In this document: piece after piece, positions 27,440 through 40,814 of the stretch
Layout of the letters: each line of letters starts with the position of its first letter
Numbering within the stretch: position 1 is the stretch's first letter
Source of the DNA: a virus
Taxonomy: Duplodnaviria > Caudoviricetes
Reading direction: 5' to 3' (one strand)
Virus record (IMG/VR): IMGVR_UViG_3300031951_000211
Span: 1-54,524 of that record
Length of the DNA stretch: 54,524 nucleotides
Program-made: the position numbers and the translations under genes
The notes under the pieces: model-generated
Seen by the model: only the letters and a program-made list of their open reading frames with translations
The model's database searches: none
What the model was told of the DNA's origin: nothing

Positions 27440-27440
27440 A

Positions 27441-27907: not shown

Positions 27908-27913
27908 AGTATC

Positions 27914-28005: not shown

Positions 28006-28010
28006 ACTGG

Positions 28011-28610: not shown

Positions 28611-28627
28611 GTGTTCCTTTAATATAG

Positions 28628-28707: not shown

Positions 28708-28711
28708 GTAT

Positions 28712-28900
28712 AGTGCCAGTATTCTGTTACGAGGAACTGGCAGAACCCTAAGCGGCAATTAAGCTGCTAATGCGTAAACTTGATCGTTTGCGTTTATTTT
28801 TGTTTTGCTGCTGCGGCCAGGAATCCCCAACCCTACGGCTTTCACATTGCCGAGTTGTCTGCTATTTTACTCTTTGCCCTGTCGAAACCATGACTGGCCC
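28712..28900 (-). ncRNA. ssrA: tmRNA coding piece (permuted two-piece tmRNA)
   Basis: 5' GGGCCAG-TCATGGTTTCGAC; tag frame 28791-28759 = ANDQVYALAA*; 3' end approximate. Confidence 0.93.
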
Positions 28901-29019
28901 ATTAGGAAACTCTCTGAGGTACTTGAAACCACGGTAACCCATCTTCCTGGCTGGTCCTTGCTCTGTCTAGAATTCGCAAGTATTTCAGTTGTTCCAGTGT
29001 AGTTACTCAGAAAGTTTTC

Positions 29020-29082
29020 TGGTGGACCAGGCGGGAGTCGAACCCGCGTCCAAGACACTTTTCTCGTTGCTTCATACAACCA
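29020..29082 (-). ncRNA. ssrA: tmRNA acceptor piece
   Basis: GGACGCGGGTTCGACTCCCGCCTGGTCCACCA pairs with GGGCCAG to give G3-U70; lies upstream of the coding piece. Confidence 0.93.
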
Positions 29083-29085
29083 TAA

Positions 29086-29346
29086 TTAAATTGCTTCTAT
29101 AGTTTTAGAAACAATTGTTTTACCGTATTTTTCTGCTAAACTTGTAACGTAGTCTAACCACTGTTGTGCACTGGTTTCGTCCTGAAATTCAATAGTTGCA
29201 CTAAAATTAGTGTTATTAATAGTCGGTATACCTGTGGTTTTTTCTATTGCTACTAAACTGTTTAAAAATGCTCTTCTTTCAGAAACAAATTGTTCGTTAT
29301 CGTACAAATCTGACTTTGTAGCCCACTGTACTGTAGTTCTAAACAT
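29086..29346 (-). CDS. Hypothetical protein
   Basis: AT-rich cassette; weak similarity to 29771-30028. Confidence 0.65.
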   Translation of the reverse strand: MFRTTVQWATKSDLYDNEQFVSERRAFLNSLVAIEKTTGIPTINNTNFSATIEFQDETSAQQWLDYVTSLAEKYGKTIVSKTIEAI

Positions 29347-29349
29347 ATA

Positions 29350-29769
29350 TTACTTTCTTATCTGTCTGCTAAGCTTTTTGGCGTAAGCACCATTTGGTAT
29401 CATTTCTGGAGAAATAATATCGTCTGATACGTCAGTGTCTCGCAAGCCATGTACGCAGTAGGCTGTTGTATTAGGCTCAAGTGCTGTTAACTTATGTTCT
29501 ATATCTTTGTTTATATAAATCATTGCAGGAGCAGTAAAGATTGTTGTTTCTTGTCCTACTTCTACTAATAGTTTACCTGTTGCAAGTAGTGTTAAATGAT
29601 CGAAACTATGTTTATGCCCCTGCTCGGTATGGCCTGCTTGTTTAAAACACATTTGACGAACAAACATATTTGCAACACACCCAAGTGCCACTTGTGGGGC
29701 GTCAGTTCTTGTTGATCCTGGATAAAATACCTCTATACCAGAAGAGGCTGCTGTAGGTGGCTCTATCAT
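29350..29769 (-). CDS. Cupin-domain protein
   Basis: GHKHSFDHLTLLATG...IEHKLTALE...YCVH. Confidence 0.8.
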   Translation of the reverse strand: MIEPPTAASSGIEVFYPGSTRTDAPQVALGCVANMFVRQMCFKQAGHTEQGHKHSFDHLTLLATGKLLVEVGQETTIFTAPAMIYINKDIEHKLTALEPNTTAYCVHGLRDTDVSDDIISPEMIPNGAYAKKLSRQIRK

Positions 29770-29770
29770 A

Positions 29771-30028
29771 TTATAGTAATTCTATATTTAGTATTGCAAT
29801 ACTATCTTGGTAGGACTCGTATATTGCCGTAGCTTCAGTTACAAAAGCTTCTCCGCTTGCTATATCTATAAATCTTATTTCAATAGTGCTATCATCTATA
29901 AGAATAAAGTCACCTATTATTTTGCCTTGTGATTTATACCTTTGAAGCAGCTGTACTATAGCATTCTTTTTGGCTACAGAACTTTCTTCTCCAATAGGCG
30001 TACCTATTTTTGCTACTACTGATATCAT
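29771..30028 (-). CDS. Hypothetical protein
   Basis: AT-rich cassette ORF. Confidence 0.6.
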   Translation of the reverse strand: MISVVAKIGTPIGEESSVAKKNAIVQLLQRYKSQGKIIGDFILIDDSTIEIRFIDIASGEAFVTEATAIYESYQDSIAILNIELL

Positions 30029-30555
30029 ACTATTTTTCTTGTAATATCAACATAACCCTGATGGGTATACGCATCAGGGTAATATTTTTTAATCATAGCT
30101 TCATGTACTGGCCCATCACTTTGACCTTTCCAGTTTACTGAAGCAGACGTCATCTGAACACCATTACGCCATTTTTCAATGGCTAGGAAAACGGCTCCAG
30201 CATCTGTGTTGAATGCAGCACCATGACTGCTATCAGCGGTAAGCAATGGCCCTGCTTTTCCTAATACGGCCATAGTATTCATAGCCCCTATTTGAACCAT
30301 AAATAGCTCTATATCAGGATGGTAATGTTCAGCAGCTTTAGTGTGTGGATTTACTAAGTAAAGTTCTACCTGATAAACATCGTGTCTAAAAATAACTATT
30401 GATGTAACTTGACCTGTGTTATATACAGCAGATTCTGCAGGTATTCTAATAGGTACTTTGTTATCTAAATACCAACGACTGAATTCTTTTAAAGAATCCC
30501 AAGTTTTTGGTACTTGTAAGGATTCGTGATAGTTGAAAAAATTTATAGAACTCAT
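30025..30555 (-). CDS. Cupin-like protein
   Basis: YQVELYL, EHYHPDIE, SHGA. Confidence 0.65.
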   Translation of the reverse strand: MSSINFFNYHESLQVPKTWDSLKEFSRWYLDNKVPIRIPAESAVYNTGQVTSIVIFRHDVYQVELYLVNPHTKAAEHYHPDIELFMVQIGAMNTMAVLGKAGPLLTADSSHGAAFNTDAGAVFLAIEKWRNGVQMTSASVNWKGQSDGPVHEAMIKKYYPDAYTHQGYVDITRKIV

Positions 30556-30568
30556 TTTTATTTATAAA

Positions 30569-30681
30569 ACCATATTTTAGCACACTACCCAAGCTAGGTG
30601 CTCCTAGTTACCCGCGGAAGGTGTGCGTACGTTTACTCCGCATTTATGCATTAAGTGGCAAGTAATGTGCTAAAATATGGT
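30569..30681 (-). ncRNA. CCA-paired trailer element 3' of tRNA-Thr
   Basis: 20-bp inverted repeat ACCATATTTTAGCACATTAC/GTAGTGTGCTAAAATATGGT. Confidence 0.75.
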
Positions 30682-30751
30682 GCCCCAGTAAGGAATCGAA
30701 CCTTCTTTTGATGCTTACAAGGCAACTGTAATACCAATATACTACAAGGGC
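30678..30751 (-). tRNA. tRNA-Thr (TGT)
   Basis: Cloverleaf, CCA. Confidence 0.9.
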
Positions 30752-30866
30752 ATGGGCAACAGTTTTTATAGAACCGCTGCGATAAAACTACTAACTGTGA
30801 ACTTATGCCTTCTCCGTTAGCGATTGGGCAGCCCGTATTTTTTGCCATCAGGGACTTTGGCTAAAC

Positions 30867-30943
30867 TGGAGTTGGTGACAGGACTCGAACCTGCATAAAA
30901 CGGATTTGCAATCCGTGGCCTAGCCGTTCGGCTACACACCAAC
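30867..30943 (-). tRNA. tRNA-Cys (GCA)
   Basis: Cloverleaf, U73, CCA; lengthened acceptor-D linker. Confidence 0.9.
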
Positions 30944-30944
30944 A

Positions 30945-31148
30945 TTAAATTTGACGAGTACGCACACAGGTTTCAAAACTATCCCAGCAACGCTCAAATT
31001 TCATTTGATACATTTGCTTGAGTCCGATCAAGTAGTTTTGCTTTTGATCTTCATCTAGCTTATCCCAATGATCTAACATTAGCTGAATGTCATCACAAAC
31101 ATTCCAGCACTGCATAATATTTTGTTCTAAGTCAAAGCGGTCAGTCAT
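30945..31148 (-). CDS. Hypothetical protein
   Basis: DRFDLEQNIMQCWNVCDDI, a common phage ORF. Confidence 0.7.
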   Translation of the reverse strand: MTDRFDLEQNIMQCWNVCDDIQLMLDHWDKLDEDQKQNYLIGLKQMYQMKFERCWDSFETCVRTRQI

Positions 31149-31149
31149 T

Positions 31150-31620
31150 TTAGTTTGCTAATATAAATTTTAGTCGGTCAGCAGCATAGCTTGCTGCAAA
31201 AGCATTGGGTTTAACTTGAGCATCTACGTTACAAGTACCTTTGATATAACCAATAGCTTGTTGTACAACACAGCTAGAGCCGTATAGCAAATTAGGGTTA
31301 ATATCTAAATGCACCTCAACATGACGATCTTGTAACACATCACTTAGCTCATGAAATAGGTCTGATACTTTGTAAACTTCTTGCATTAAGCGTAAGGCAG
31401 GCTTTGACACTTTTTGGTCAAAGTCGCGTTCTCTGGTAATAGTTCCAAAAATTTTGCAACCGTGATTGCCGTCAATGTGTACTACCACTGCTAGCGTGTA
31501 GTCAGCGTGCCATACACCATTAACTTTAACACGCTCTGAATCGGCACCAAGATAAATCTTAGTTTCTGGTGATTGTGCTGCAATAAAGTCTCGGACTTCT
31601 TGTAAGTTAAATTCGTGCAT
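31150..31620 (-). CDS. RNase H-like YkuK-family protein
   Basis: IYLGADS, RLMQEV, EVHLDIN, KPNAFAASYAAD. Confidence 0.85.
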   Translation of the reverse strand: MHEFNLQEVRDFIAAQSPETKIYLGADSERVKVNGVWHADYTLAVVVHIDGNHGCKIFGTITRERDFDQKVSKPALRLMQEVYKVSDLFHELSDVLQDRHVEVHLDINPNLLYGSSCVVQQAIGYIKGTCNVDAQVKPNAFAASYAADRLKFILAN

Positions 31621-31633
31621 GATAGTTGTTGTG

Positions 31634-31710
31634 TGGAGGGTCTGGAGGAAGTCGAATCCCCAACCTCTTGGTTCGTAGCCAAGTGCTCTCATCCATTGAG
31701 CTACAGACCC
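31634..31710 (-). tRNA. tRNA-Arg (ACG)
   Basis: Cloverleaf, CCA. Confidence 0.93.
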
Positions 31711-31715
31711 GTATG

Positions 31716-31789
31716 TGGCAGAGGGACTAGGGATCGAACCTAGAACGCATGAATCAAAATCGTGTGTGATACCATTTCACCATCCCCCA
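31716..31789 (-). tRNA. tRNA-Gln (TTG)
   Basis: Cloverleaf, CCA. Confidence 0.9.
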
Positions 31790-31790
31790 A

Positions 31791-31947
31791 CAAATTTTAT
31801 AGCTGTTCTACTGTGATTTTAAGGAGATTAGTCTCCACCTATATGTATGTTACAACACTTTGTACACCATGTGCGCCGGTGCTATAGGCTAGGTATACCC
31901 TAGTAGATAGGCTGTGCACTCATTTTCTTTCACAGCTATAAAATTTG
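31791..31947 (-). ncRNA. CCA-paired trailer element 3' of tRNA-Asn
   Basis: 16-bp inverted repeat CAAATTTTATAGCTGT/ACAGCTATAAAATTTG. Confidence 0.7.
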
Positions 31948-32020
31948 GCTCCACAGGCAGGGATCGAACCTACGACCAATTGATTAACAGTCAACTGCAC
32001 TACCGCTGTGCTACTGTGGA
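31946..32020 (-). tRNA. tRNA-Asn (GTT)
   Basis: Cloverleaf, CCA. Confidence 0.95.
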
Positions 32021-32148
32021 ATATTATTTTAGCATACAACATACGCTAAAATAATAGTGCTGCTTACGATATACAGCGTGACATTGTCGTAGTCACCGAT
32101 TGGGTTACGGACGCTCTAACCGGAACATCACGGACCTAAGGCAGGTTT

Positions 32149-32223
32149 TGGCGGTCTTAAGGGGTAACGATCCCCTTCTTCAAGCGTGACAGGCTTGTGT
32201 GCGTCCATGAACACTTTAAGACC
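32149..32223 (-). tRNA. tRNA-Asp (GTC)
   Basis: Cloverleaf, CCA. Confidence 0.9.
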
Positions 32224-32228
32224 ATATT

Positions 32229-32312
32229 TGGTACGACTGGAGGGACTTGAACCCTCAATCAATGAAGCGGCAGATTTTAAGTCTGCTGTGTATACCATTC
32301 CACCACAGTCGC
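32229..32312 (-). tRNA. tRNA-Leu (TAA)
   Basis: Cloverleaf, CCA. Confidence 0.93.
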
Positions 32313-32317
32313 GTTAT

Positions 32318-32399
32318 TGGTGGAGAAGGAGGGGATCGAACCCACTTGCCGAAGCCACGACTTTACAGGCCGCTGTCCTACCATTAGAACATCTTCTCC
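32318..32399 (-). tRNA. tRNA-Tyr (GTA)
   Basis: Cloverleaf with variable arm, CCA. Confidence 0.88.
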
Positions 32400-32451
32400 G
32401 CTTTAAAAGATAATTATACCCGATTCAGCAATCTGCGGCAAATCTAAATTT

Positions 32452-32526
32452 TGGCACGCCCCCACGGACTCGAACCGTGACTAATAGTTTTGGAGACTAA
32501 CGTGCTGCCAATTACACTAGGGACAT
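32452..32526 (-). tRNA. tRNA-Trp (CCA)
   Basis: Cloverleaf, CCA. Confidence 0.9.
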
Positions 32527-32585
32527 ATAATTGCCCCACACTTCTAACACCAGACTGACTACTGGCTAGGGTCGTGGGATTCTGT

Positions 32586-32660
32586 TGGTGGTTTTGGTGG
32601 GATTCGAACTCACGACCAACGCCGTATGAAGACGGTGCACTACCGCTGTGCTACAAAACC
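32586..32660 (-). tRNA. tRNA-Met (CAT), elongator
   Basis: Cloverleaf, CCA. Confidence 0.9.
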
Positions 32661-33001
32661 AAAAAGCCAGAGAAAGTCTCTGGCCAGTAAAATTTGGGCC
32701 GGTTACATTCTCCGGCGACACATTTCGTTGTGCCTGAAGACATTGACGCTGTTTAAAGTCCATTAAAGGGGCATAGTCTGTAGCCTTAAGTAAACAGATA
32801 CATAGTTATTTTTGTGTCAGGAAAACTTTAACCCCGTGAGAGCAGCCCATCTTGTTTTCGCTTCAGCGGACGCAGGATAATGCCTTTTCGCATTAATTTG
32901 TATACAAGCCTGCAATTGTAGTTAACTGGGTACTAATCTCCCTGTATAGCCGGAGCACACCGGTAGCTTACGCTAGTCTAGCAATACGTGCTTTTACAAT
33001 T

Positions 33002-33072
33002 TGGTTGCGGGGGAAGGATTCGAACCTTCTAGGCGGAGCTTATGAGACTTGCCTCTACCCTGACTCCCCGCG
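33002..33072 (-). tRNA. Degenerate initiator tRNA-fMet (CAT)
   Basis: CGCGGGG/CCCCGCA with C1-A72 mismatch; shrunken D arm. Confidence 0.75.
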
Positions 33073-33122
33073 ATATATTAATATTATACCGGAATTGCTA
33101 AATATATTCAAGTATAAAATTT

Positions 33123-33338
33123 TTATGGCAAAGCTGTAAGTTTTTCGTTTACTGAGCTTAACAATGCTGGGTCACTTGGTGACTGGTATATTCTGTCAAA
33201 TTTTAGTTCGTAGGTATCCAACTGTTTAAAGACACCTTCAGCAATTTCTTGCGTTATACTAACCCTAACCGTTGTTTCGTGGGGTAAGCTGTTAGTGCTC
33301 ATATAAACAATAGTTACTATTTTGTTTGATAAATCCAT
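33123..33338 (-). CDS. Hypothetical protein
   Basis: Last ORF of the AT-rich six-gene cassette. Confidence 0.6.
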   Translation of the reverse strand: MDLSNKIVTIVYMSTNSLPHETTVRVSITQEIAEGVFKQLDTYELKFDRIYQSPSDPALLSSVNEKLTALP

Positions 33339-33790
33339 TATAAAAAACTCCAAATTCTAGCAGTATATCTTAAATATATTGACGTTTGTCCGGGTATTAT
33401 ATCCCCATAATTAGTTCTTCGGTAAGTAGAAAATCTTAAAGTATTATTTATCGAATCAATACATAATGCTTCGCTGTCTACTGCAGCCTGATTACTTACA
33501 TTTCTTCCAAAAAAATCTACAAGAATCGGACCACTAACAGGAATTTCTCTATTAATTAATGCAGAGTTTAGGTCAGCTTGACCACTAGCACTTAGAATTT
33601 TAATTGTTAGTACTAATATATCTTGTGGCTGTAGAGTTTCTAATCCAACAAAACTCACACTATTAGGCCCCACAAAAACTTCCTGATTTCTATACAGTCT
33701 TTGATACAATAACTTATTATTGCTATTGAATTTTTCCACTCCAAAGGAGTTATTTATTTTAATTAAGGAGTCTGATACTACTACGGTCAT
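33338..33790 (-). CDS. Tail-tip/fibre-like beta protein
   Basis: IKINNSFGVEKFNSNNKLLY N-terminal motif. Confidence 0.5.
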   Translation of the reverse strand: MTVVVSDSLIKINNSFGVEKFNSNNKLLYQRLYRNQEVFVGPNSVSFVGLETLQPQDILVLTIKILSASGQADLNSALINREIPVSGPILVDFFGRNVSNQAAVDSEALCIDSINNTLRFSTYRRTNYGDIIPGQTSIYLRYTARIWSFL

Positions 33791-34521
33791 GGTGTTACTG
33801 CCAATGCTATTTTTATTGGATTTCTAGAAATATACATAGATTGTGGTCTAACAAAAACACCCAGGCTATTATAGGGGGCTAGTTGAGCTAGAGTAACTAC
33901 TGTAGCATTGTTATAACCGTCTACCACAGTAGTTGTATAATTAACGTGTTCGTTGGCTTGATAGTTAAGTAGAAATATTCCACCTGCAGGATTTATTGGA
34001 CCAGGCGGCAAGTTAAGTATAATGGGGTATATCATAAGACTAATTGTATTATACGCCCTATTGCCGTACTGATCAGTAAGACCTTCATTTCTACCAAAAA
34101 GGGATACTTGCCATTTATAAATAGCTTGAGTGCTCTCAGTTATTCCTGTATTGTTATTATAATAAGTAACACTTCGCCAACTAGGGGTTTCAAAAACTCT
34201 AGACCCTGATGTACGCTCCCAGGCACGGCTAAATTGTAAACTTGCGCTTCCGGTCAGGTTTGGCACTTCGTAGCCAATGTCTCTGCTAAAATTAGTATTA
34301 AAAGGAGCGTAAAAGTAATTAGTACCTGAAAAAAAGCCGCTGGTTGTGTCGTCGACGATACTATTTTGCCCATAGATCATAGGGCTTCGGGTGTTGCCGC
34401 CAGCAAATAACTCACCGCTTGGATCTGTTTTTAAGTACAAATTATTAGTATTAAAAGTTATATTTCCATTTGCATTGCGTGTTATTATTTGTTGAGGAGT
34501 AATGCTTATTCGTTCACTCAA
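33787..34521 (-). CDS. Tail-tip/fibre-like beta protein
   Basis: IITRNANGNITFNTNNLYLK; Asn/Thr/Tyr-rich. Confidence 0.5.
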   Translation of the reverse strand: MSERISITPQQIITRNANGNITFNTNNLYLKTDPSGELFAGGNTRSPMIYGQNSIVDDTTSGFFSGTNYFYAPFNTNFSRDIGYEVPNLTGSASLQFSRAWERTSGSRVFETPSWRSVTYYNNNTGITESTQAIYKWQVSLFGRNEGLTDQYGNRAYNTISLMIYPIILNLPPGPINPAGGIFLLNYQANEHVNYTTTVVDGYNNATVVTLAQLAPYNSLGVFVRPQSMYISRNPIKIALAVTP

Positions 34522-34780
34522 TTACAAGTACCTCCACATTGGGCAAACTAAAAGCAGGTATATCTTCGCCATAAGCAATTGTTTGACACGCAACAAAAAT
34601 ATTACCTGTTGCAGCATCAAAAGTACCATAAAATGTACGATAACCACCTGCGTAGGTTACTCTATACCCATTAGCATATTCTACACCATTAACAACAAGC
34701 ATTATGTAAGGATTAGGTATCGTGGTGTTTCCAACGTATATTTCTTCTATTCTTTGACTTGGTACAAAAGCTGAACCCAT
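34514..34780 (-). CDS. Hypothetical beta-rich protein
   Basis: Translationally coupled ORF. Confidence 0.6.
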   Translation of the reverse strand: MGSAFVPSQRIEEIYVGNTTIPNPYIMLVVNGVEYANGYRVTYAGGYRTFYGTFDAATGNIFVACQTIAYGEDIPAFSLPNVEVLVIE

Positions 34781-34788
34781 ATATTTCC

Positions 34789-35355
34789 TTAAACTATTTC
34801 GCCAGTTTCACGAATAAATTTGGTATCTGTGCCAAGTACATCAAATACTTTCATCCAAAGCTTCTTAAGTGGAGTAAATATCCAACCCCAGCTATTATAA
34901 CCATAGTACCACTTTGCATAATAAACCGCAGGAGTGGCAAAAGTAGCAATAATTAAAAACTTAATTAATTTGTATTCTCGCATTAGTGGAACCACAACTT
35001 CTGCTAGTTTATAGTACCCACGTTTGTTTCTTTCAGTAATGTGTTCGTCTCTGTATCGTCTAATAACGGCATCTAATACTCCTGTGCCATATCTTGCCTC
35101 TAATACAATAAAACAGCATCCACTACAACCCTTACTTCCATCCTCCCAACTAAAAACACCACGAGGTTGGGCAGGAAAAGTTAGTGTGCCTGTGTTTATT
35201 TTTTGACGAATTTGTACATAGGGTAGATTGCTGTGAAAAAATAAGTTTTGTCGATTAGCAATTGGGTTACTAATGGCGTTAGCAACATTTATATCGGCTG
35301 TGCCAATAAGCATTGTGCCACTATTTCCATCTACATACAGCCTTCTAGTTGACAT
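34789..35355 (-). CDS. Protein with CFI-box-CTERM-like domain
   Basis: GCSGCCFIVLEARYG...IRRYRDE...GYY; N-terminal FFHSNLPYV. Confidence 0.6.
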   Translation of the reverse strand: MSTRRLYVDGNSGTMLIGTADINVANAISNPIANRQNLFFHSNLPYVQIRQKINTGTLTFPAQPRGVFSWEDGSKGCSGCCFIVLEARYGTGVLDAVIRRYRDEHITERNKRGYYKLAEVVVPLMREYKLIKFLIIATFATPAVYYAKWYYGYNSWGWIFTPLKKLWMKVFDVLGTDTKFIRETGEIV

Positions 35356-35881
35356 ATCTATAACACCCTAATATTTTATTATAATCAATTGTGTCTATGC
35401 TAGATAGTCTGCCAGGTAAGTGGTGCAGTATTTTATTTTCTGCTACGCAAACACCAACATGATTATTTGGAATAACTTCTGTTACGGCATCTGCGTACAC
35501 TAAGCAATCCCCTCTAGCAGGGTTGCTAACTTCGCAAAAATTGTTGTCTTCATACCACAAACGCATACCTGATTTGTAGTATTTTAAGAATTGTTTATTT
35601 GAAATAGTATTATAGATATTTCCAAAACTTGTGTGCAAGTGATCGTCAAGCCACTCTGTAAATAAGGTAATACAGTCAGAGCGTTTTAACACGTAAGCTC
35701 TAGCCAAGTAACTCTTTTCGGGTGCTATTGGCGCCCATGTTTTTTGTTGCTTGTTTAAGTATATTGAGTACTGTTTAAACTCGTAGGATACGGTAAATAG
35801 TCCACACTCGTCTTCAACTAACAGTCCTCGAACTAAGGAGAATTGCTTGCCTACCTTGTCTGCAAAAAAGTTATAATCCAT
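35345..35881 (-). CDS. NlpC/P60 peptidase (lambda tail K-like)
   Basis: SDCITL, GDCLVY, NHVGVCV...ILHH. Confidence 0.8.
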   Translation of the reverse strand: MDYNFFADKVGKQFSLVRGLLVEDECGLFTVSYEFKQYSIYLNKQQKTWAPIAPEKSYLARAYVLKRSDCITLFTEWLDDHLHTSFGNIYNTISNKQFLKYYKSGMRLWYEDNNFCEVSNPARGDCLVYADAVTEVIPNNHVGVCVAENKILHHLPGRLSSIDTIDYNKILGCYRYVN

Positions 35882-35886
35882 AGACT

Positions 35887-35920
35887 AAAACACCCCAAAC
35901 CTAAATTTGGGGTGTAAAAA
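35887..35920. terminator. Hairpin / possible terminator
   Basis: ACACCCCAAA...TTTGGGGTGT. Confidence 0.55.
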
Positions 35921-36103
35921 TTAAATCATTGTGGTATGTTTGTGAGTTTCTACTGCTTTGCTGTATTTTTCGTACTGCTCAATCCAGTAATTTAACTCTT
36001 TACTGTTTTGTGGATTTTTCGATTCCAAGTACGTTTCAAGCAGCTCGTGCTCTGGTCTAAACACTGATTTAAGCACACGCAGTGCATAGTTTAGGCCGCT
36101 CAT
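35921..36103 (-). CDS. Small hypothetical protein
   Basis: LETYLESKNPQNSKELNYWIEQYE. Confidence 0.6.
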   Translation of the reverse strand: MSGLNYALRVLKSVFRPEHELLETYLESKNPQNSKELNYWIEQYEKYSKAVETHKHTTMI

Positions 36104-36333
36104 TTTTGATTTACGAATTCGTAAAACTGTTTTGACTTAGCCAACACTTCACCAAAGTCAAAAGGCTTTGGCATAAACTTTTCCATCATTTCTTTGTTGG
36201 CAAGAGTTTTGTCAGTGATGTTATCAAACATTTCTTGTGCAAATTCTAGGTTTGCTGCATACTCAGCTTGCATAAGCTCAGCAGTCATCTTCAAGATTTC
36301 AAGACGAATTTCAAAAGGAGATTTATTACTCAT
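36100..36333 (-). CDS. Conserved small phage protein
   Basis: KSPFEIRLEILKM...FYEFVN. Confidence 0.7.
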   Translation of the reverse strand: MSNKSPFEIRLEILKMTAELMQAEYAANLEFAQEMFDNITDKTLANKEMMEKFMPKPFDFGEVLAKSKQFYEFVNQK

Positions 36334-36403
36334 TGTAGTTCCTGTGTGTTGTGTGTAAAGTGCAGGCTTTTCACCTGCTTGGAGCGCTATTTCAGCTCAT
36401 GTG

Positions 36404-36478
36404 TGGTACTGAGGGAGGATTCCGAGACCTCGACCTATCGCTTATCAAGCGAGTGCTCTGCCGCTGAGCTACCCCAGT
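36404..36478 (-). tRNA. tRNA-Ile (GAT)
   Basis: Cloverleaf, atypical T loop, CCA. Confidence 0.88.
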
Positions 36479-36487
36479 AAAATTGTG

Positions 36488-36563
36488 TGGTGCCTCGAAC
36501 TGGAGTCGAACCAGTGACACACGGATTTTCAATCCGCTGCTCTACCGCCTGAGCTACCAAGGC
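36488..36563 (-). tRNA. tRNA-Phe (GAA)
   Basis: Cloverleaf, CCA. Confidence 0.95.
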
Positions 36564-36777
36564 CTTGCCAAGTATTAATAGTTTGCCACTGTTCGGCTTC
36601 GTAGCTGTCGCAGTCAATACGCCAAGGGCAGGTGCTTAGTATCTGTGTTGAGCAGTCGTCGTTGCCCCAGCAAACTGGCGGTTCTGTGCCACGTAGTACC
36701 ACTATTTGTTTGTGTACTAATTCACGTCGATTAGCTAAACTAGCTTCTTTGTCTAAGAGTTCTTGGATGTTTGACAT
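36529..36777 (-). CDS. Hypothetical Cys-containing protein (3' end runs into tRNA-Phe)
   Basis: PPVCWGNDDCSTQILSTCPWRIDC. Confidence 0.45.
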   Translation of the reverse strand: MSNIQELLDKEASLANRRELVHKQIVVLRGTEPPVCWGNDDCSTQILSTCPWRIDCDSYEAEQWQTINTWQGLGSSGGRAAD

Positions 36778-36986
36778 TGGCAATTTCCTGGGCAGACAGT
36801 CGAGTTTCGATCTCGGTCTACGACTTTCACAGAGTCGGGTGCTTCCATTACACTACCTGCTGCATTGTTTTTGGGCTTGGCATGAATAGCGGCTTCTGCT
36901 GCTCGGCACGCTTTTAGGGTGTCAAACTGACAGCGACCACGTTCGCCATACTTCCACTTACCGTTAGCACATTTCATGCAAGGCAT
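36753..36986 (-). CDS. Small Cys-rich protein (frame reads through tRNA-His)
   Basis: MPCMKCANGKWKYGERGRCQFDT with AAGGA RBS. Confidence 0.45.
   Translation of the reverse strand: MPCMKCANGKWKYGERGRCQFDTLKACRAAEAAIHAKPKNNAAGSVMEAPDSVKVVDRDRNSTVCPGNCQCQTSKNS
36789..36863 (-). tRNA. tRNA-His (GTG)
   Basis: G-1:C73, bulged acceptor stem, CCA. Confidence 0.82.
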
Positions 36987-36999
36987 AAATTCCTTTGTT

Positions 37000-37087
37000 T
37001 GGCGGAATACGTAGGAATCGAACCTACCCACCCATTACTGAATGACAGATTAGCAATCTGTTGCCTTAACCGCTCGGCCAGTATTCC
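37000..37087 (-). tRNA. tRNA-Ser (GCT)
   Basis: Cloverleaf with long variable arm. Confidence 0.95.
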
Positions 37088-37096
37088 ATATTTATT

Positions 37097-37188
37097 TGGT
37101 AGCCCCACCGGGAGTCGAACCCAGATGAACCAATTATCTGTTGCTTACGGGATATAAATCCGCCGTTTTACCATTAAACTATAGGGCC
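37097..37188 (-). tRNA. tRNA-Ile (TAT) with 22-nt variable region
   Basis: GGCCCTA/TGGGGCT acceptor, GCGGA-TT-TAT-AT-CCCGT, CCA. Confidence 0.78.
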
Positions 37189-37193
37189 GTAAG

Positions 37194-37294
37194 TACCATA
37201 TAGAAACACACTATCTTCACTCACTTACGATTGTCGTAACCAGCGGAAGTTAGCAATCTGCTCATGTATTGCTATAATGTGTTTTTATATGGTA
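37194..37294 (-). ncRNA. CCA-paired trailer element 3' of tRNA-Lys
   Basis: 21-bp inverted repeat (one mismatch, one G-U) TACCATATAAAAACACATTAT/ATAGTGTGTTTCTATATGGTA. Confidence 0.75.
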
Positions 37295-37364
37295 GACGCA
37301 CAGAGAATCGAACTCTGATTTGCTGGTTAAAAGCCAGCTACTTTAGCCGTTAAGTTATACGTCC
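37290..37364 (-). tRNA. tRNA-Lys (TTT)
   Basis: Cloverleaf, CCA. Confidence 0.93.
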
Positions 37365-37477
37365 AGTGTGCGCTTCCATTTGCCACGAAGCTGCTTGTGG
37401 CTTTTTTGATGTGAACCACTGCCACCACGCTTCATTAAAGCTAGTGCAACATGGTTCCGAGGTTTTCGTGTTTTCAT
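37355..37477 (-). CDS. Small basic peptide (40 aa)
   Basis: MKTRKPRNHVALALMKRGGSGSHQKSHKQLRGKWKR; AAGGA RBS. Confidence 0.6.
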   Translation of the reverse strand: MKTRKPRNHVALALMKRGGSGSHQKSHKQLRGKWKRTLDV

Positions 37478-37487
37478 ATATTCCTTT

Positions 37488-37563
37488 TGGTGGAGAATAC
37501 AGGGATCGAACCTGCGACCTACTGCTTGCAAAGCAGCCGCTCTCCCAGCTGAGCTAATTCCCC
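37488..37563 (-). tRNA. tRNA-Ala (TGC)
   Basis: Cloverleaf, G3-U70. Confidence 0.95.
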
Positions 37564-37569
37564 AAATTG

Positions 37570-37653
37570 TGGTGCGTCGAGAGAGACTCGAACTCTCAAT
37601 CCTTTCGGCACTGGCTTCTAAGACCAGCGTGTATACCATTCCACCACCAACGC
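37570..37653 (-). tRNA. tRNA-Leu (TAG)
   Basis: Cloverleaf, CCA. Confidence 0.95.
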
Positions 37654-37818
37654 ATTATACTTTTATGTCTACGTTTACGCCTTTGGTTGTATCAACTGAT
37701 CTGTAGTACACTGTTTGTTGCACAAACTGAGCACCATTGTTGTCAACTTTAGTTGCATAAACTATCTCACGTATTTTATCAAAATACGGAGTAAATGTTC
37801 TTGAAACGCTTTTTGTTT

Positions 37819-38004
37819 CCATATTGTTGTACCTACTGTTTACTACCCGCCCCGCTAAGGGCGTGTTTCTGGTTTATTGTGTTCATGACTCACACCTGTA
37901 CCAGAACTCAAACCATACCCACTAACTTTCCCGGGTGTTAATGTTCTCAAGCCTGCAATGTTCCATAACTGAATTGGACACTAGCAGTAGGTACAACAAT
38001 ATGG
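37819..38004 (-). ncRNA. CCA-paired trailer element 3' of tRNA-Pro
   Basis: Perfect 20-bp inverted repeat CCATATTGTTGTACCTACTG/CAGTAGGTACAACAATATGG enclosing 146 nt. Confidence 0.8.
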
Positions 38005-38075
38005 TCAAGGCGGCAAGAATCGAACTTGCGCTACAACGTCCCAAACGTCGGGTGATGCCATTTCACTACGCCCTG
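38002..38075 (-). tRNA. tRNA-Pro (TGG)
   Basis: Cloverleaf, CCA. Confidence 0.92.
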
Positions 38076-38196
38076 ATATGTTAGTTTATTGAAGCAAACT
38101 AACAAAACTTACTGGAGTACGCATAACTGTCCAGTGCAACAAAGAATAATAATTATACTTGAAAAAGCATTTTACCACAAGTGTAAAATTTTAAAG

Positions 38197-38267
38197 CCAT
38201 AATTTAACACACTAAACTACTTAGGCCGCAAAAGGGGCCATTGTTCATAAAATGTGTTAAATTATGG
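38197..38267 (-). ncRNA. CCA-paired trailer element 3' of the tRNA-like RNA
   Basis: Perfect 15-bp inverted repeat CCATAATTTAACACA/TGTGTTAAATTATGG. Confidence 0.75.
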
Positions 38268-38442
38268 TGGATCAGGCAGGACTCGAACCTGCTTCCTAAA
38301 ATTATACAACACACGACCATGTATTCGAACTCAGGCTGAACTGTAGTTGAATGTACCGTTGCGGCGGTCACAGGGTCAACACTCCACATTCAAAGGTGTT
38401 GTATGCCGGCTTTGTGCTTTAACCATGTTAAGCTACCGATCC
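38265..38442 (-). ncRNA. 178-nt tRNA-like RNA with about 100 nt inserted in the anticodon arm
   Basis: Acceptor GGATCGG/CTGATCC-ACCA, D arm, GCAGG-TTCGAGT-CCTGC; insert closed by ATACAACAC/GTGTTGTAT. Confidence 0.8.
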
Positions 38443-38499
38443 ATATATTAGCACACTATAAAATATGCTAATATATGGAGACACTCCCTAAAGTGTCCA

Positions 38500-38665
38500 C
38501 ATATAGTCTTATTACCGAGGGCGACAGCCCCGCTGTATCTTAGAATATCCAAACATTCCCTCTACAGCGGCGGGACGTTTATTTTAATGACGGAGCTTGC
38601 ATCCGCCTCGCTCGAATTGTGCTGCCACATACTAGGGATGTATGTGGCAAGCCTAAGCGGGACTT
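38500..38665 (-). ncRNA. Candidate structured ncRNA
   Basis: Hairpins TGCCACATAC/GTATGTGGCA, GGCGGA/TCCGTC, CCGCTGTA/TACAGCGG; no ORF. Confidence 0.5.
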
Positions 38666-38667
38666 AA

Positions 38668-38865
38668 TTATAAACTATTTTTGTAGACTCGGATTGCTTC
38701 AGCATCTAAACTGGCATATGTACGGAAGCTGTCACGACCTACTCGATCATAAAGATCGTTTGCCATTTGTTCTAGATGTACAAGCTGCTCAATAGTAATC
38801 AGAGTACATTTAATGTATCGTGACATAAAAGCATCAATTAAAAAGTCTCGTGAATAGCCACTCAT
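38668..38865 (-). CDS. Hypothetical protein
   Basis: ORF with GGAG RBS. Confidence 0.65.
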   Translation of the reverse strand: MSGYSRDFLIDAFMSRYIKCTLITIEQLVHLEQMANDLYDRVGRDSFRTYASLDAEAIRVYKNSL

Positions 38866-38877
38866 AATATCTCCAAA

Positions 38878-39222
38878 TCAGCCTATATTATAAGGCATTT
38901 CGGTTACTTCGTCAAGTGTCAAAACACGAATGTGGGTATCACCACGCTGATCAGCTTGTTTTAGCCAGTTGTCGAGCACACCATGCATCAAGCCACTCAT
39001 GTGATAGTTGCCTGCACCACAGCGGTAAGTGCTGCCCGAATAACCATCAAACTCAAACCAGTCGCCACTACGACGTACTGCAACAATACCTGAGTTCAGT
39101 TTCCACGAATTCGACCCAGCAAAGCCACCGTACCAGCCAGCAAATACTTTGCGGAGTGGAACCTCTAAGTCTGGGTGGTCGAATTCTAGTACGACCCAAA
39201 CGTCTGGTGTGTAGATACTCAT
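38878..39222 (-). CDS. Conserved phage protein
   Basis: YTPDVWVV...KVFAGWYGGF..SNSWKLNSGI. Confidence 0.75.
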   Translation of the reverse strand: MSIYTPDVWVVLEFDHPDLEVPLRKVFAGWYGGFAGSNSWKLNSGIVAVRRSGDWFEFDGYSGSTYRCGAGNYHMSGLMHGVLDNWLKQADQRGDTHIRVLTLDEVTEMPYNIG

Positions 39223-39286
39223 ATTATTTCTCCAAATCAGACTATATTATAATCTGATTCAGGCAAATACTCAAGTGTAAATTTCT

Positions 39287-39361
39287 TGGCCCGGCTAGCA
39301 GGAATCGAACCCACATTAAGGGCTTAGAAGACCCCTGTATTATCCGTTATACGATAGCCAG
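39287..39361 (-). tRNA. tRNA-Arg (TCT)
   Basis: Cloverleaf, CCA. Confidence 0.92.
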
Positions 39362-39366
39362 ATGTA

Positions 39367-39810
39367 TTACTGTTTAAAAGTTACTGGGCTGTACACATCG
39401 AACAGTTCAGTTTCAAAGTGCAAAACTAGACCACGTTCCATGTACTCGTAGTTGTCTGGAATATCTAGTACAATTTGCTTTTGCTCAATCTGTGTTAGCA
39501 ACTCACGGTGGCCTAAAAAGTTATCTTCTAGTTGCCACAAGTTTTCACGATTAACAAACACAATTTTTTGCGCCCAGTTAACTAAGTTGGCACTGCAAGG
39601 AATAAGTGCGTAGTTAAAGTTTGATCCACACGATCTGGCATTAATACCACGCTGCACTGCCATAGCTGCGCCTGTTGGTGAGCGAAGCAATCCAGCACTG
39701 CAAACAAACAACCAACGCGGAGCTTCGCCTTGATACTGGTTGGCATACGGTGCTGATGTTTTAAAAATTGCGTCGTTTTTACTGCCTTGAGCAAATGGTG
39801 TGTTTGTCAT
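39367..39810 (-). CDS. Low-molecular-weight phosphotyrosine phosphatase-like protein
   Basis: LFVCSAGLLRSPT P-loop, LDIPD. Confidence 0.85.
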   Translation of the reverse strand: MTNTPFAQGSKNDAIFKTSAPYANQYQGEAPRWLFVCSAGLLRSPTGAAMAVQRGINARSCGSNFNYALIPCSANLVNWAQKIVFVNRENLWQLEDNFLGHRELLTQIEQKQIVLDIPDNYEYMERGLVLHFETELFDVYSPVTFKQ

Positions 39811-40814
39811 AGTGTGGTTTTGTAGTTGTGTAGGGCAAAGCTGGCTGTGTTTTTTTGTTTTGATTCGCACATAATGTCTGCATAGGGATTAAAGCTAAGT
39901 GCCCAATCATTGCAGGCTTGGTTCCAGTAAAACTCTGAGTGTGCACGAAGTTTGGCTGCAGTAAAGCCCATTGTTTTAAGTTGCCGTAAGTCTGGGCGAA
40001 CCAGTGGGTCGTGGTCTACTAAGCAATCTTCTCGACTTACTGAATAGTGAATAGTAGGGCGAACACCACGCCAAGAGTCTACAACACGCTTAAACTTAGG
40101 GTCATCAGGTGTGATATACTCACCGCTGTAAATCCAGTGGTGGTGAATGTCTAGTACAAGTGCACAAGTGTCTGCTAGTTCTAGACTATGGTCAATGCCC
40201 CAGGTAAACTCGGCGTTTTCTATGGTTAAACAGTTACGTGCTTCGGGTGAGAGACGACGCAGTGCGGCTTTGATACCGTCTGGGCCACGCTTACCGCCGA
40301 TATGTACGTTGCACTTAAAGTCTTGAAACTCACGACCAAAGCCCATGTAACGGATCAAGTCGCAGTGATACTCAAACTCGGTAATTGAGTTTTCGATTAC
40401 GTGGTCTTGCTCCGATGCCAGCACACAAAACTGACCAGGGTGGAATGAGAGCTTGATATCCAGGTCGCGAGCACGTTGGCCGATTTTCGACAGATTGGTT
40501 TCAAGAAACTGCACAACTTCCGGCTGGAAGTAAAAAGGCATCCAGTCGTCATGTGTGTAAGCTGGTAGTAAATCGCTGGTAATGCGAAACATACGCAACT
40601 CAGGCACTTGACGGCCGATATATTCAATCTGACCGGCCAGGGCTGCAACGTTGGCACGCATAATATCCCACAGTCGTTCACGAGCACGATCAGGTGTTTG
40701 TGAACTGAGCCATTTGATAGTTGTGCCTGACTGATTCAGTTTAGGGTCTGCTTTAGACTCCGAAACTTGAACTTTACAGGCGAAACCAATGCGTTGGATA
40801 TTTTGATTGAACAT
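39807..40814 (-). CDS. uvsE: UV-damage endonuclease
   Basis: RIGFAC, FRITSDLLP, SFHPGQF, IENAE, VLDIHHHW, RAHS. Confidence 0.93.
   Translation of the reverse strand: MFNQNIQRIGFACKVQVSESKADPKLNQSGTTIKWLSSQTPDRARERLWDIMRANVAALAGQIEYIGRQVPELRMFRITSDLLPAYTHDDWMPFYFQPEVVQFLETNLSKIGQRARDLDIKLSFHPGQFCVLASEQDHVIENSITEFEYHCDLIRYMGFGREFQDFKCNVHIGGKRGPDGIKAALRRLSPEARNCLTIENAEFTWGIDHSLELADTCALVLDIHHHWIYSGEYITPDDPKFKRVVDSWRGVRPTIHYSVSREDCLVDHDPLVRPDLRQLKTMGFTAAKLRAHSEFYWNQACNDWALSFNPYADIMCESKQKNTASFALHNYKTTL

Follow-up and report, generated by a model that had tools for sequence, protein, structure and literature searches.

The tRNA gene cluster of an uncultured T5-like phage contains long hairpins whose 5' arm begins on the CCA encoded at a tRNA end; small folded RNAs lie inside them, and the following RNA starts where they stop. 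Compensatory change preserves them as sense-strand RNA helices, which are anchored at CCA ends and confined to phage tRNA clusters. Most likely, the hairpins mark the cut points of a long precursor transcript, as seems to be so for the long-known stable RNAs of phage T5. In our judgement there is about an even chance that host RNase III processes them as 'punctuation' cassettes in a polycistronic transcript that joins the tRNAs, tmRNA and small RNAs of this T5-like phage. We infer the cleavage, RNase III as the enzyme and the accumulation of the enclosed RNA (the cargo).

An earlier note on the window (the whole 54,524-nt stretch of DNA analysed) had described seven inverted repeats, all of which are present. 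All window tRNAs lie on the minus strand, and the features concerned are as follows.

28623-28712, minus strand: related stem at the 3' end of the permuted tmRNA gene; arms 19-22 nt, loop 46-52 nt
30569-30681, minus strand: tRNA-Thr trailer, box-type stem; arms 20 nt, 95% complementary
31791-31947, minus strand: tRNA-Asn trailer, stem without the box; arms 16 nt, 100% complementary
32022-32056, minus strand: 'empty' stem; arms 15 nt, 93% complementary
37194-37294, minus strand: tRNA-Lys trailer, box-type stem; arms 21 nt, 90% complementary
37819-38004, minus strand: tRNA-Pro trailer; arms 20 nt, 100% complementary, 146 nt in between
38197-38267, minus strand: trailer of a tRNA-like RNA, box-type 17-bp stem; arms 15 nt, 100% complementary, 37 nt enclosed
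38268-38442, minus strand: tRNA-like gene; Rfam tRNA match, 37.7 bits
38440-38479, minus strand: minihelix trailer, box-type 18-bp stem without cargo; arms 14 nt, 100% complementary, 4-nt loop
38476-38498, minus strand: minihelix GGACACU-UUAGGG-AGUGUCU-CCA, read from the sequence

The 5' arms start 1-4 nt ahead of the tRNA end called by ARAGORN, on C74/C75 or on the discriminator. A start at the CCA, as claimed in the earlier note, was borne out for the tRNA, tRNA-like and minihelix trailers, and the empty stem is the exception. The arms of the Thr trailer (ACCAUAUUUUAGCACAUUAC / GUAGUGUGCUAAAAUAUGGU) surround a conserved structured cargo of 73 nt, and the 3' arm stops 14 nt short of the ATG of ORF 30025-30555. 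The Asn stem (16 bp, 125 nt enclosed) ends 2 nt upstream of tRNA-Gln, and the Lys stem (59 nt enclosed, with a conserved A.C mismatch at position 8) ends 6 nt upstream of tRNA-Ile(UAU). The enclosed RNA of the Pro element forms four internal hairpins within a closing stem of 20 bp; the ATG of ORF 37655-37822 falls within the Pro 3' arm. On the minus strand, tRNA-Asp is followed by a conserved 92-nt RNA and then by the empty stem (15-16 bp, loop 3-5 nt), which ends 2 nt upstream of tRNA-Asn. Cargo length had been put at 12 to 146 nt; the upper value holds and the lower does not, loops starting from 4 nt with G-U pairs counted (minihelix trailer).

The tRNA-like RNA has canonical acceptor, D and T arms and a 109-nt insert in the anticodon arm. 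It drew no call from ARAGORN, unlike the Rfam tRNA model, and is kept in four relatives at 77-89% identity. Its CCA (38265-38267) opens the trailer stem, whose arm starts on C74 at 38267; the minihelix-trailer stem ends in the first 3 nt of the tRNA-like RNA. The minihelix is the 3' end of a conserved GC-rich RNA region (approximately 38499-38720). The region upstream of the minihelix is conserved in the related loci L038, L041 and L042; in L042 the minihelix before the CCA differs in sequence yet stays self-complementary.

Four window elements, the Thr, Lys, tRNA-like and minihelix trailers, form one family with a 17-bp stem (CCAUAU-WWW-ARCACAYU), scoring 74.2, 63.5, 56.8 and 47 bits, respectively, with the covariance model of the family (R1). 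The motif occurs eight times in the record, as four pairs, and its reversed-pattern control not at all, which agrees with the consensus that the earlier note had ascribed to four elements. The single trailer family proposed there stands for these four. It does not extend to the Pro, Asn and empty stems, which gave no R1 match at E ≤ 1 and are separate families; the window tmRNA-end stem gave none at this threshold either. Rfam holds no match for the box-family element. Pairing is kept in 97.8% of cells of the box family, versus 86.7% in shuffles and 30-49% with the partners slid. Compensatory change was found at 9 of the 17 stem pairs, and none of 500 shuffles reached any of these measures. 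Across 30-32 elements drawn from at least three phage lineages, the inner 8 bp (ARCACAYU and its partner, the box) hardly vary, whereas the middle 3 bp are free to covary. At stem position 16 a U.G pair is conserved in 16 of 30 sequences, where the other strand would give a C.A mismatch.

A search of phage genomes with R1, a step suggested in the earlier note, gave 49 matching places spread over 15 of 17 phage records, and 48 of these places lie within tRNA clusters. The cultured Vibrio phage Thalassa contains one of the 49. The box occurs in T5-like, jumbo-like and Vibrio-phage records. In bacterial genomes (596 Gb) the motif is at chance level, with 116 single hits versus approximately 139 expected by our own estimate. 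Among 80 bacterial loci fetched, none lay at a tRNA 3' end and none had a convincing partner arm (three had a 16-nt partner with four mismatches).

Anchoring was assessed in a survey of 98 long stems in 334 kb from 15 related tRNA-cluster loci. Of these stems, 33 begin within -5 to +1 of a tRNA 3' end (0.6-1.1 expected), and 16 of the 33 also finish within -5 to +12 of the 5' end of the next tRNA; stems of this kind span the entire spacer between two stable RNAs. Each locus has 1-4 of its 5-26 tRNAs clamped, except for two loci with none. Over the 15 loci G-U exceeded A-C by 50:7 among motif-like stems and by 104:36 when all long stems were counted, bearing out the earlier argument from minus-strand G-U pairs. 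This strong bias, together with the compensatory changes, reveals selection on the single-stranded sense form. Window stems are more stable than shuffled sequence (z -4.5 to -7.9; none of 200 shuffles equally stable). Within the window alone, the energy gap between strands is small, the sense strand being better for three of the four elements folded both ways and the antisense slightly better for Thr.

An alignment of six orthologs of the Pro element has 56 pairs, 36 of them compensatory, and 10 of the 20 pairs that close the stem are among these. In contrast to box stems, those of the Pro type are free to change in sequence. No homolog of the Asn element was found in 16 other loci. When the same junction was compared in relatives, as the earlier note had advised, the Asn-to-Gln spacer was 156 nt in the window versus 7 nt in L038, L039, L045 and L047; the window element is an insertion relative to these four. 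Similarly, the Phe-to-Glu spacer measures only 16 nt in L041, against 181-184 nt in L038 and L045. The tmRNA-end stem does not start on a CCA; its counterparts in relatives are box-like, for example UAAAUUUUAGCACAUUA in L047 (R1, 29.7 bits).

Stems outlast their cargo: the one that is empty in the window holds 21-70 nt of cargo in relatives, and orthologous sites differ in cargo. The Thr cargo is conserved in five relatives, with 9 of 39 pairs compensatory. It has CUUCCGC-N-GGU-N-AC in common with the Lys cargo, confirming the shared sequence seen earlier, and in the Thr family this stretch makes up one side of a hairpin that covaries. Cargos also change position. A Thr-type cargo is found behind Asp in L044, and the Lys cargo of L041 sits upstream of Tyr in L040. 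Two neighbouring elements at 38.2-38.5 kb swap cargo, that of the tRNA-like trailer being found in L041 and L042 in the element following the minihelix instead. Many cargos are without a homolog in close relatives.

A processing cassette of this kind would be an RNA hairpin whose 5' arm lies on the encoded CCA of the upstream stable RNA, whose 3' arm reaches the start of the following RNA or gene or stops a few nucleotides short of it, and whose loop is a variable, often structured small RNA. A host endonuclease specific for double strands, most likely RNase III, would cleave both strands of the 16-25-bp helix. The upstream tRNA would then be freed with a short A/U-only 3' tail, which exonucleases could trim to the CCA, and the short leader left on the downstream tRNA would fall to RNase P. 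The enclosed RNA would be released, with the inner half-stem as its cap, as a stable small RNA like T5 RNA III, IV and 2H. The size of the closing helix (median 18 bp, at least 17 bp in 37 of 48 elements) suits a double-strand nuclease. Counting against RNase III, only 13 of the 48 helices attain at least 20 bp, and a purely structural role leaves the conserved 8-nt box unexplained. The RNA runs considered were all assembled contigs, a form that does not reveal transcript ends. The first C downstream of the CCA lies exactly 8 nt on in 38 of 46 elements. As RNase T is inhibited by C residues directly after the CCA, according to PMC4176162, such a tail would suit exonuclease trimming. Escherichia coli RNase III participates in T4 tRNA maturation, as stated in PMC4810235 (citing McClain 1979 and Gurevitz & Apirion 1983). 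No phage-encoded RNase III (PF14622) was found in five records, three of them 93-100% complete, so the enzyme would be that of the host.

The nearest precedent for the arrangement, which the earlier note did not recognise, is phage T5 (AY543070), in which rnaIII, rnaIV and rna2H are annotated as 'stable RNA with unknown functions'. Each sits within a stem of at least 20 bp, and that of rnaIII starts on the GCCA end of RNA I and finishes in the 5' end of tRNA-His. The RNA ends annotated in GenBank fall mid-stem with 3' overhangs of 2, 1 and 2 nt, which is the signature of RNase III. For rnaIII, the annotated 3' end falls on the RNase P site of tRNA-His and is therefore explicable without RNase III. 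As R1 found no match in the whole T5 record, the link with T5 is one of analogy and not of homology. The earlier note had offered three readings, namely RNase III cassettes, CCA shields and tiny mobile elements; the first is the best supported, by way of the sense helices, the filling of whole spacers and the staggered T5 ends.

The helices may instead act without RNase III, keeping tRNA folding separate and protecting against 3' exonucleases, and their removal would be left to RNase P and/or RNase E, cleaving directly past the CCA. We regard this as fairly unlikely. Its precedent is E. coli valU, lysT and leuX, where hairpins 2-7 nt past the CCA are removed by RNase P and, for valU, processing is unaffected in RNase III mutants (PMC4176162); this also counts against RNase III in the window. 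The 3' arm adjoins an RNase P site in 16 of 33 cases, and the stem base, which is a weak helix of A and U alone and lacks C for 8 nt past the CCA, could open for RNase E. In context, the minimum-energy fold of tRNA-Lys keeps cloverleaf and hairpin side by side. However, the annotated 3' ends of T5 rnaIV and rna2H lie mid-stem and not at a tRNA 5' end, so RNase P acting at a tRNA could not produce them, and insulation alone requires neither a conserved 8-nt box nor a fixed 17-bp length. Alternatively, the conserved box stem could be a shared handle, bound by a phage or host protein and marking a family of functional small RNAs. The variable cargo would then be the function (for example, decoys or regulators), and the CCA clamp would merely tie release to tRNA maturation. 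The near-invariant inner 8 bp beside a freely covarying middle, the several conserved and structured cargos with compensatory change and the same cargo behind different tRNAs are consistent with a handle, and the box would stay on the released RNA if the cut were placed as in T5. It is nevertheless unlikely: the minihelix trailer (4-nt loop) is a cargo-less member, many cargos lack homologs in close relatives, and box-less stems (Pro, Asn, Phe, Glu) serve the same structural job. All-against-all comparison of ORFs from 17 loci gave no protein common to all box lineages, the jumbo-like records being fragments.

Movement of cargos between tRNAs, the presence or absence of elements at the Asn-to-Gln and Phe-to-Glu junctions and the spread of the box over T5-like, jumbo-like and Vibrio-phage records would also fit small mobile or recombination cassettes that insert at, or recombine through, the tRNA 3' end, RNA folding being secondary. 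The mobile-element reading of the earlier note is partly compatible with these observations. Against it, the Asn junction shows no direct target-site duplication, no genome contains identical or near-identical copies (arms are conserved and cargos differ), no transposase-like gene is linked, and the G-U bias and compensatory changes reveal selection on the sense form. Indels and homologous exchange between conserved arms would yield an identical pattern, and we consider mobility improbable. A very improbable proposal is that the 3' arm is an extended -10 promoter (TGnTAAAAT / TGnTATAAT) of the next gene, with the hairpin a by-product or part of a terminator-plus-promoter cassette. Certain 3' arms do read TGTGCTATAAT or TGTGTTATAAT, approximately 6 nt upstream of the next RNA. 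Yet when the 32 unique elements are put in a common register, A occupies the -11-equivalent position in only 15, while all keep their pairing. A promoter scan gave 32 sites versus 31.4 expected, with one in the Asn 3' arm, one across the minihelix and the 5' arm of its trailer, and none in the Thr and Lys arms. Real cluster promoters are canonical (TTGAC-17-TATAAT) and located elsewhere, for example in the Trp-to-Tyr spacer, and A/U-rich stems without a U tract are not intrinsic terminators. Equally remote is a protective role, in which the stems would conceal the CCA of precursor tRNAs from nucleases of host defence or from toxins that modify CCA. Nothing was found in its support beyond the pairing of the CCA, and often of the discriminator, and the description in PMC11464382 of phage tRNA clusters as counter-defence tools. 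A clamped tRNA cannot be charged, so the clamp has to come off anyway, and few tRNAs per locus are clamped. We know of no defence acting on precursor tRNAs. Moreover, stems with the same box are also found behind the tmRNA coding piece, which has no CCA at its end, so clamping the CCA is not the common denominator.

Among known systems, T5 RNA III, IV and 2H resemble the window elements in lying in the tRNA cluster of a T5-type phage, with 80-170 nt enclosed between stable RNAs, and according to the annotation they accumulate as discrete species. They differ in having no conserved box and in that only one of three stems starts on a CCA, whereas the design seen in the window is repeated at 4-7 sites per genome. 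The 3'ETS-leuZ sponge of E. coli and rnaC and rnaD of T4 are likewise non-tRNA RNAs co-transcribed with tRNAs and freed by the tRNA-processing machinery; to our knowledge, they have neither a CCA-anchored closing stem nor a shared handle. T4-type PeSL cassettes and integron attC sites share the theme of repeated hairpin boundaries around exchangeable cassettes in plastic genome regions. PeSLs, however, contain a functional early promoter, and attC sites are marked by R/L boxes and served by an integrase; neither a promoter consensus nor a recombinase was found for the window elements. Established RNase III processing stems (16S/23S rRNA leader-trailer stems, T7 early-RNA sites and the T4 tRNA step) are also long flanking helices that excise a stable RNA from a polycistronic precursor. 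In the window, by contrast, the functional CCA end of a tRNA serves as one arm, the RNA inside is small and variable or missing altogether, and cleavage is predicted. The valU, lysT and leuX hairpins of E. coli, described in PMC4176162, are similar as stem-loops a few nucleotides past the CCA that are removed endonucleolytically before 3' trimming. They differ in being Rho-independent terminators, rich in GC, that stand at the ends of operons and are taken off by RNase P; the window stems are A/U-rich, without a U tract, internal and paired with the CCA itself.

The inverted repeats described in the earlier note were all found in the window, with 5' arms that start on the CCA of the tRNA or 1 to 2 nt earlier, at the discriminator, on the minus strand. 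Compared with shuffled sequence, the folds of these stems gave z-scores of -4.5 to -7.9. Arms (terminal inverted repeats) are 14 to 24 nt long across elements, and the Lys hairpin, when folded between its two flanking tRNAs, forms beside an intact cloverleaf. A scan of IMG/VR with the shared motif gave 29 loci, 15 of which lie in tRNA clusters, on 14 contigs. From these contigs, three of which appear to derive from much larger phages (estimated 6 to 20% complete), 20-kb tRNA regions were fetched. The gene order of the window (Trp-Tyr-Leu-Asp-Asn-Gln-Arg-Cys-Thr-tmRNA-Gly) is shared by several of the related clusters.

A census of the window and the 14 regions (334 kb, 307 tRNA or tmRNA calls) yielded 98 stems that have 14 or more Watson-Crick pairs and span no more than 340 nt. 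Thirty-three of them start within -5 to +1 of a tRNA 3' end, where 0.6 to 1.1 would be expected. Of this group, 16 also end within -5 to +12 of the first base of the next tRNA, showing that the hairpin occupies the entire spacer. G-U pairs outnumber A-C pairs by 104 to 36 overall and by 50 to 7 in motif-like stems, the detector having treated both alike, which indicates folding of the sense strand and agrees with the earlier proposal that G-U pairs on the minus strand reflect RNA structure. Since CCA is the 3' end of 274 of the tRNA calls, the clamp (the stem pairing over CCA) is confined to few tRNAs, with one to four per locus and none in two loci.

The window record (54.5 kb, estimated completeness 52%) carries a T5-type gene set, including family A DNA polymerase, ribonucleotide reductase, an SbcC-like protein, DnaB, an SNF2 helicase, a ClpP-like protease and UvdE. 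Its polymerase shows 50% identity to those of Vibrio Demerecviridae, for example phage Thalassa, and a near-identity search with an 8.4-kb region found no near match among 50,697 cultured-phage records. The 25 tRNA genes called by ARAGORN and the permuted tmRNA gene are all on the minus strand; thus, RNAs of the window run from high to low coordinates. Features in and around the cluster are as follows.

27918-28005, minus strand: weak tRNA-Sec-like match (35.4 bits, short of the 47 needed for gathering), with the ClpP-like gene on one side and small ORFs on the other
28011-28610: ClpP-like gene, just downstream of the tmRNA gene
28668-29112, minus strand: phage-borne permuted (two-piece) tmRNA gene, tag ANDQVYALAA
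31150-31692, minus strand: PF04308 RNase H-like (YkuK type) ORF inside the cluster, in the tRNA-Arg/tRNA-Cys interval
32057-32148, minus strand: conserved 92-nt RNA-like stretch directly 3' of the tRNA-Asp CCA, followed by the 'empty' stem
32400-32451, minus strand: canonical promoter (TTGxxx-17-TATAAT) in the Trp to Tyr spacer, conserved in 9 loci
32661-33002, minus strand: 340-nt non-coding stretch between the uncalled tRNA-like sequence and tRNA-Met
33003-33075, minus strand: uncalled tRNA-like sequence in which a clear T arm (GAAGGUUCGAAUCCUUC), a 3' strand resembling that of an acceptor, and CCA can be recognised, from reading of the sequence only
37095-37366, minus strand: segment comprising tRNA-Lys, its trailer and tRNA-Ile
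38268-38442, minus strand: tRNA-like gene; acceptor, D and T arms canonical, anticodon arm enlarged by a 109-nt insertion
38499-38720, minus strand: conserved GC-rich non-coding region whose 3' end is the minihelix-CCA

The PF04308 family was found in 8 of 15 related records, with a match in the same Arg-Cys interval in fetched relatives, and a role in RNA processing is conceivable. It was set aside as a candidate linked nuclease; all eight records belong to the core T5-like group, and absence from fragments is uninformative. In relatives the tmRNA gene is directly 3' of the tRNA-Thr trailer (the element 3' of the tRNA), while in the window about 1.4 kb with four ORFs lies between them. The stretch at 32057-32148 is 92 to 98% identical in three relatives. 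The sequence at 33003-33075 was not called by ARAGORN and had no Rfam match at E ≤ 1. The adjoining 340-nt stretch is 86 to 90% conserved in two related loci (L041 and L038), is predicted to be strongly structured, with a terminator-like hairpin at its end, and has no Rfam match; its ends (AACCAA and UUGGUU) could again pair over the upstream CCA. An RNA-run contig overlapping approximately position 32824 had very high word depth, which does not measure expression.

Twenty sequencing runs contain part of the stretch. Most of it is present in DNA runs labelled freshwater metagenome or fungus metagenome, and RNA runs contain just 5 to 8% of the sampled words. The four RNA runs that were aligned consist of assembled contigs, uninformative on ends, strand or level, and represent mainly 90 to 95%-identical relatives and cross-matching tRNAs. 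One RNA contig terminates at 37837, within the Pro 3' arm, but the sequence adjoining this end is presumably library adapter and it was given no weight.

A common design was seen in 32 unique CCA-anchored stems. Positions 1 to 6 are CCAUAU, positions 7 to 9 are A/U and covary, and positions 10 to 17 form a nearly invariant box (ARCACAYU) paired with its partner. About half of the sequences have a U.G wobble at position 16, and Lys-type stems, including that of the window, have an A.C mismatch at position 8. In an alignment of 30 box-type elements, 97.8% of the cells of the 17-pair helix are paired, compared with 86.7% in column shuffles and 30 to 49% with slid partners. Nine pairs show compensatory change and none of 500 shuffles matched any of these measures. 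A covariance model of the kind proposed earlier was built and run on the fetched loci and 17 whole records, and compensatory changes are present in homologs.

The calibrated covariance model built from this alignment, R1, found 54 places in 411 kb of fetched loci. On whole records it found 49 places in 15 of 17, with 48 inside tRNA clusters and the other a 28-nt palindrome (record G008); there were none in T5 or in record G014. Vibrio phage Thalassa has one place, directly 3' of tRNA-Val, where the trailer lies at MG649967.1:77955-78089. In the window R1 matched the Thr (74.2 bits), Lys (63.5), tRNA-like (56.8) and minihelix (47) elements, all of which are in its training set; about 20 matched places lie outside that set. 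The consensus ascribed in the earlier note to four elements therefore holds for these four, but the wider grouping of all the elements as one family does not, as Pro, Asn and the empty stem gave no R1 match at E ≤ 1. Box-type stems also occur in L043, L049 and L050 (records G006, G012 and G013), tRNA arrays with different gene order on contigs of apparently much larger phages, estimated to be 6 to 20% complete, indicating that the family spans phage lineages.

This motif is phage-specific: across 596 Gb of genomes from bacteria and archaea there were 116 occurrences, single every time, where we estimate that about 139 occurrences would be expected by chance, and in 80 fetched bacterial or archaeal loci there was no convincing partner arm and none was at a tRNA 3' end. 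A distant blastn search with the Thr element gave only seven matches, at chance level (E = 4). Rfam 15 at gathering threshold found tRNA and tmRNA alone in the whole window and, at E ≤ 1 across 25000-40500, no match on any stem or cargo (the RNA between the stem arms), so these are not members of a family already described there.

The box is missing from the empty stem and from the trailers of Pro, Asn, Phe, Glu and Trp, none of which R1 matched. The Pro element forms a family of its own, with six orthologs that have a 141 to 148-nt interior; 36 of its 56 predicted pairs show compensatory change and 10 of its 20 closing pairs covary. The tRNA-like gene matches RF00005 (37.7 bits, threshold 29) in a permissive scan only and was not called by ARAGORN. 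It is conserved in four relatives (77 to 89% identity), and its 109-nt insertion may be an intron or an expanded arm. The non-coding region at 38499-38720 is 75 to 88% conserved in three related loci (L038, L041 and L042) and has no Rfam match.

Some cargos are structured RNAs that are conserved, and others are orphans. Five relatives have the 73-nt Thr cargo, with paired strands that change in a compensatory way (GCGGAG/CUUCCGC to GUGGAG/CUUCCAC, for instance), whereas neither the Asn element nor the window Lys cargo has a homolog among the 16 other loci. Cargo can be exchanged: Thr-type cargo is found behind tRNA-Asp in L044, the Lys cargo of L041 is upstream of tRNA-Tyr in L040, and the cargo of the tRNA-like trailer of the window is inside the minihelix trailer in L041 and L042. 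Cargos of copies within one genome are unrelated. Stems outlast their cargo, the empty stem of the window containing 21 to 70 nt in relatives. Presence and absence at the same tRNAs, which the earlier note wished to see compared, is polymorphic among relatives: the Asn to Gln spacer is 156 nt in the window and 7 nt in four relatives, and the Phe to Glu spacer is 181 to 184 nt or 16 nt.

Such presence and absence, together with the cargo swaps, fits mobile elements, as suggested earlier, or recombination, and the terminal inverted repeats are those of a MITE-like element. However, there is no direct repeat at the filled versus empty Asn to Gln junction, near-identical copies within a genome were not found in the fetched loci, no enzyme was found, and the strand-specific covariation shows selection on the folded sense strand. 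A reading of the 3' arm as an extended -10 sigma-70 promoter fails, since the essential A at the -11 equivalent is present in only 15 of 32 unique elements and a promoter scan showed no enrichment (32 sites, 31.4 expected). Genuine promoters in the clusters are canonical and situated elsewhere; that conserved in the Trp to Tyr spacer shows promoters to be present within the cluster, as they are in T5. Intrinsic terminators, which have a GC-rich stem and then a U tract, were also rejected: none of the seven stems was listed as terminator-like, and they are A/U-rich and followed by a tRNA or ORF. A shield of the CCA against end-cleaving defences, also suggested earlier, receives no support: box-like stems follow the coding piece of tmRNA too, which has no CCA, making CCA the usual docking point rather than the essence of the design.

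The elements are instead inferred to be processing cassettes of the tRNA-cluster transcript, by analogy with T5. In the T5 GenBank record (AY543070), several RNAs that lie between tRNA genes are labelled 'stable RNAs with unknown functions', and three of these (rnaIII, rnaIV and rna2H) coincide with stems of at least 20 bp enclosing 80 to 170 nt. The rnaIII stem runs from the GCCA end of RNA I to the 5' end of tRNA-His, a layout as in the window; T5 has no R1 place and the link is one of analogy. RNase III needs roughly 20 bp of helix, or about two turns (11 bp or so at the least); it cuts both strands to leave 2-nt 3' overhangs, and this cleavage depends on rnc. By their coordinates in the record, the three T5 RNAs end mid-stem on each arm, and the 3' overhangs are 2, 1 and 2 nt, which resembles the signature of RNase III, although RNase P might just as well have produced the rnaIII 3' end. 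The median length of the closing helix in minimum-energy folds is 18 bp (of 48 helices, 13 have 20 bp or more, 24 have 17 to 19 and 11 have fewer than 17).

In a processing cassette, one double cut would free the upstream tRNA with a short A/U tail, leave a short leader on the downstream RNA and release the cargo capped by the box helix. There is no C in the 8 nt after CCA in 38 of 46 elements, and RNase T is inhibited by C residues (excerpt of PMC4176162), so a tail from a cut there should be a good RNase T substrate. PF14622 was found in none of five records; lacking an RNase III gene of their own, the phages would rely on the host enzyme, and RNase III is reported in T4 tRNA maturation (excerpt of PMC4810235). 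A rival to be taken seriously is processing by RNase P or by RNase E, or an insulating role alone, as E. coli RNase P removes hairpins 2 to 7 nt after CCA with RNase III dispensable (PMC4176162). Ligation or circularisation, for which the hairpin 3' end would abut the tRNA 5' end, was rejected because the arm is mostly not flush with the RNase P site (the Lys 3' arm stops 6 nt short of it). For CCA closure, the lysT operon of E. coli K-12 is not a robust host precedent: its 132 to 149-nt spacers fold strongly, but CCA pairing in the minimum-energy folds relies on three G's from the following tRNA that were included in the folded sequence.

The invariance of the box, in contrast to the drift of Pro-type stems, would be accounted for if the box were a handle bound by a protein. 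However, no partner protein emerged from ORF comparison: all-against-all blastp of 2126 ORFs from 17 loci, in which jumbo-like records are 6 to 20% fragments, found none common to all box lineages. It is possible, but we consider it improbable, that the box stem is the shared handle of modular small-RNA cassettes in which cargo is exchanged via the handle and maturation and release are one event. The conserved 17-bp clamp on CCA would then dock diverse cargo RNAs onto tRNA genes, cargos would be swapped between phages by recombination through it, and the single event might be regulated, for example in timed tRNA activation or the release of decoy RNAs against host defences.

Clusters of tRNA genes in phages are currently viewed as counter-defence and translation-tuning modules. 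A widespread hairpin family with clear covariation and a precise CCA anchor, absent from Rfam, bears on how their long transcripts are cut and on the role of inter-tRNA RNAs, a question since the catalogue of T5 stable RNAs. Should the stems prove to be RNase III sites, the ends of mature RNAs in phage tRNA arrays could be annotated by a simple rule; should the box prove to be a handle for a protein, the elements would represent a new class of small RNAs in phages. A literature search outside the older T5 papers found no description of CCA-anchored hairpins in phage tRNA arrays or of the processing of T5 stable RNAs. Phage tRNA clusters are known to contain processing stems and spacer RNAs, of which the stems described here would be a variant; the present analysis contributes the precedent of T5, where RNA ends are RNase III-like, a family member in the cultured phage Thalassa, a calibrated model with counts, the separation of box-type from other stems and the evidence against a promoter.
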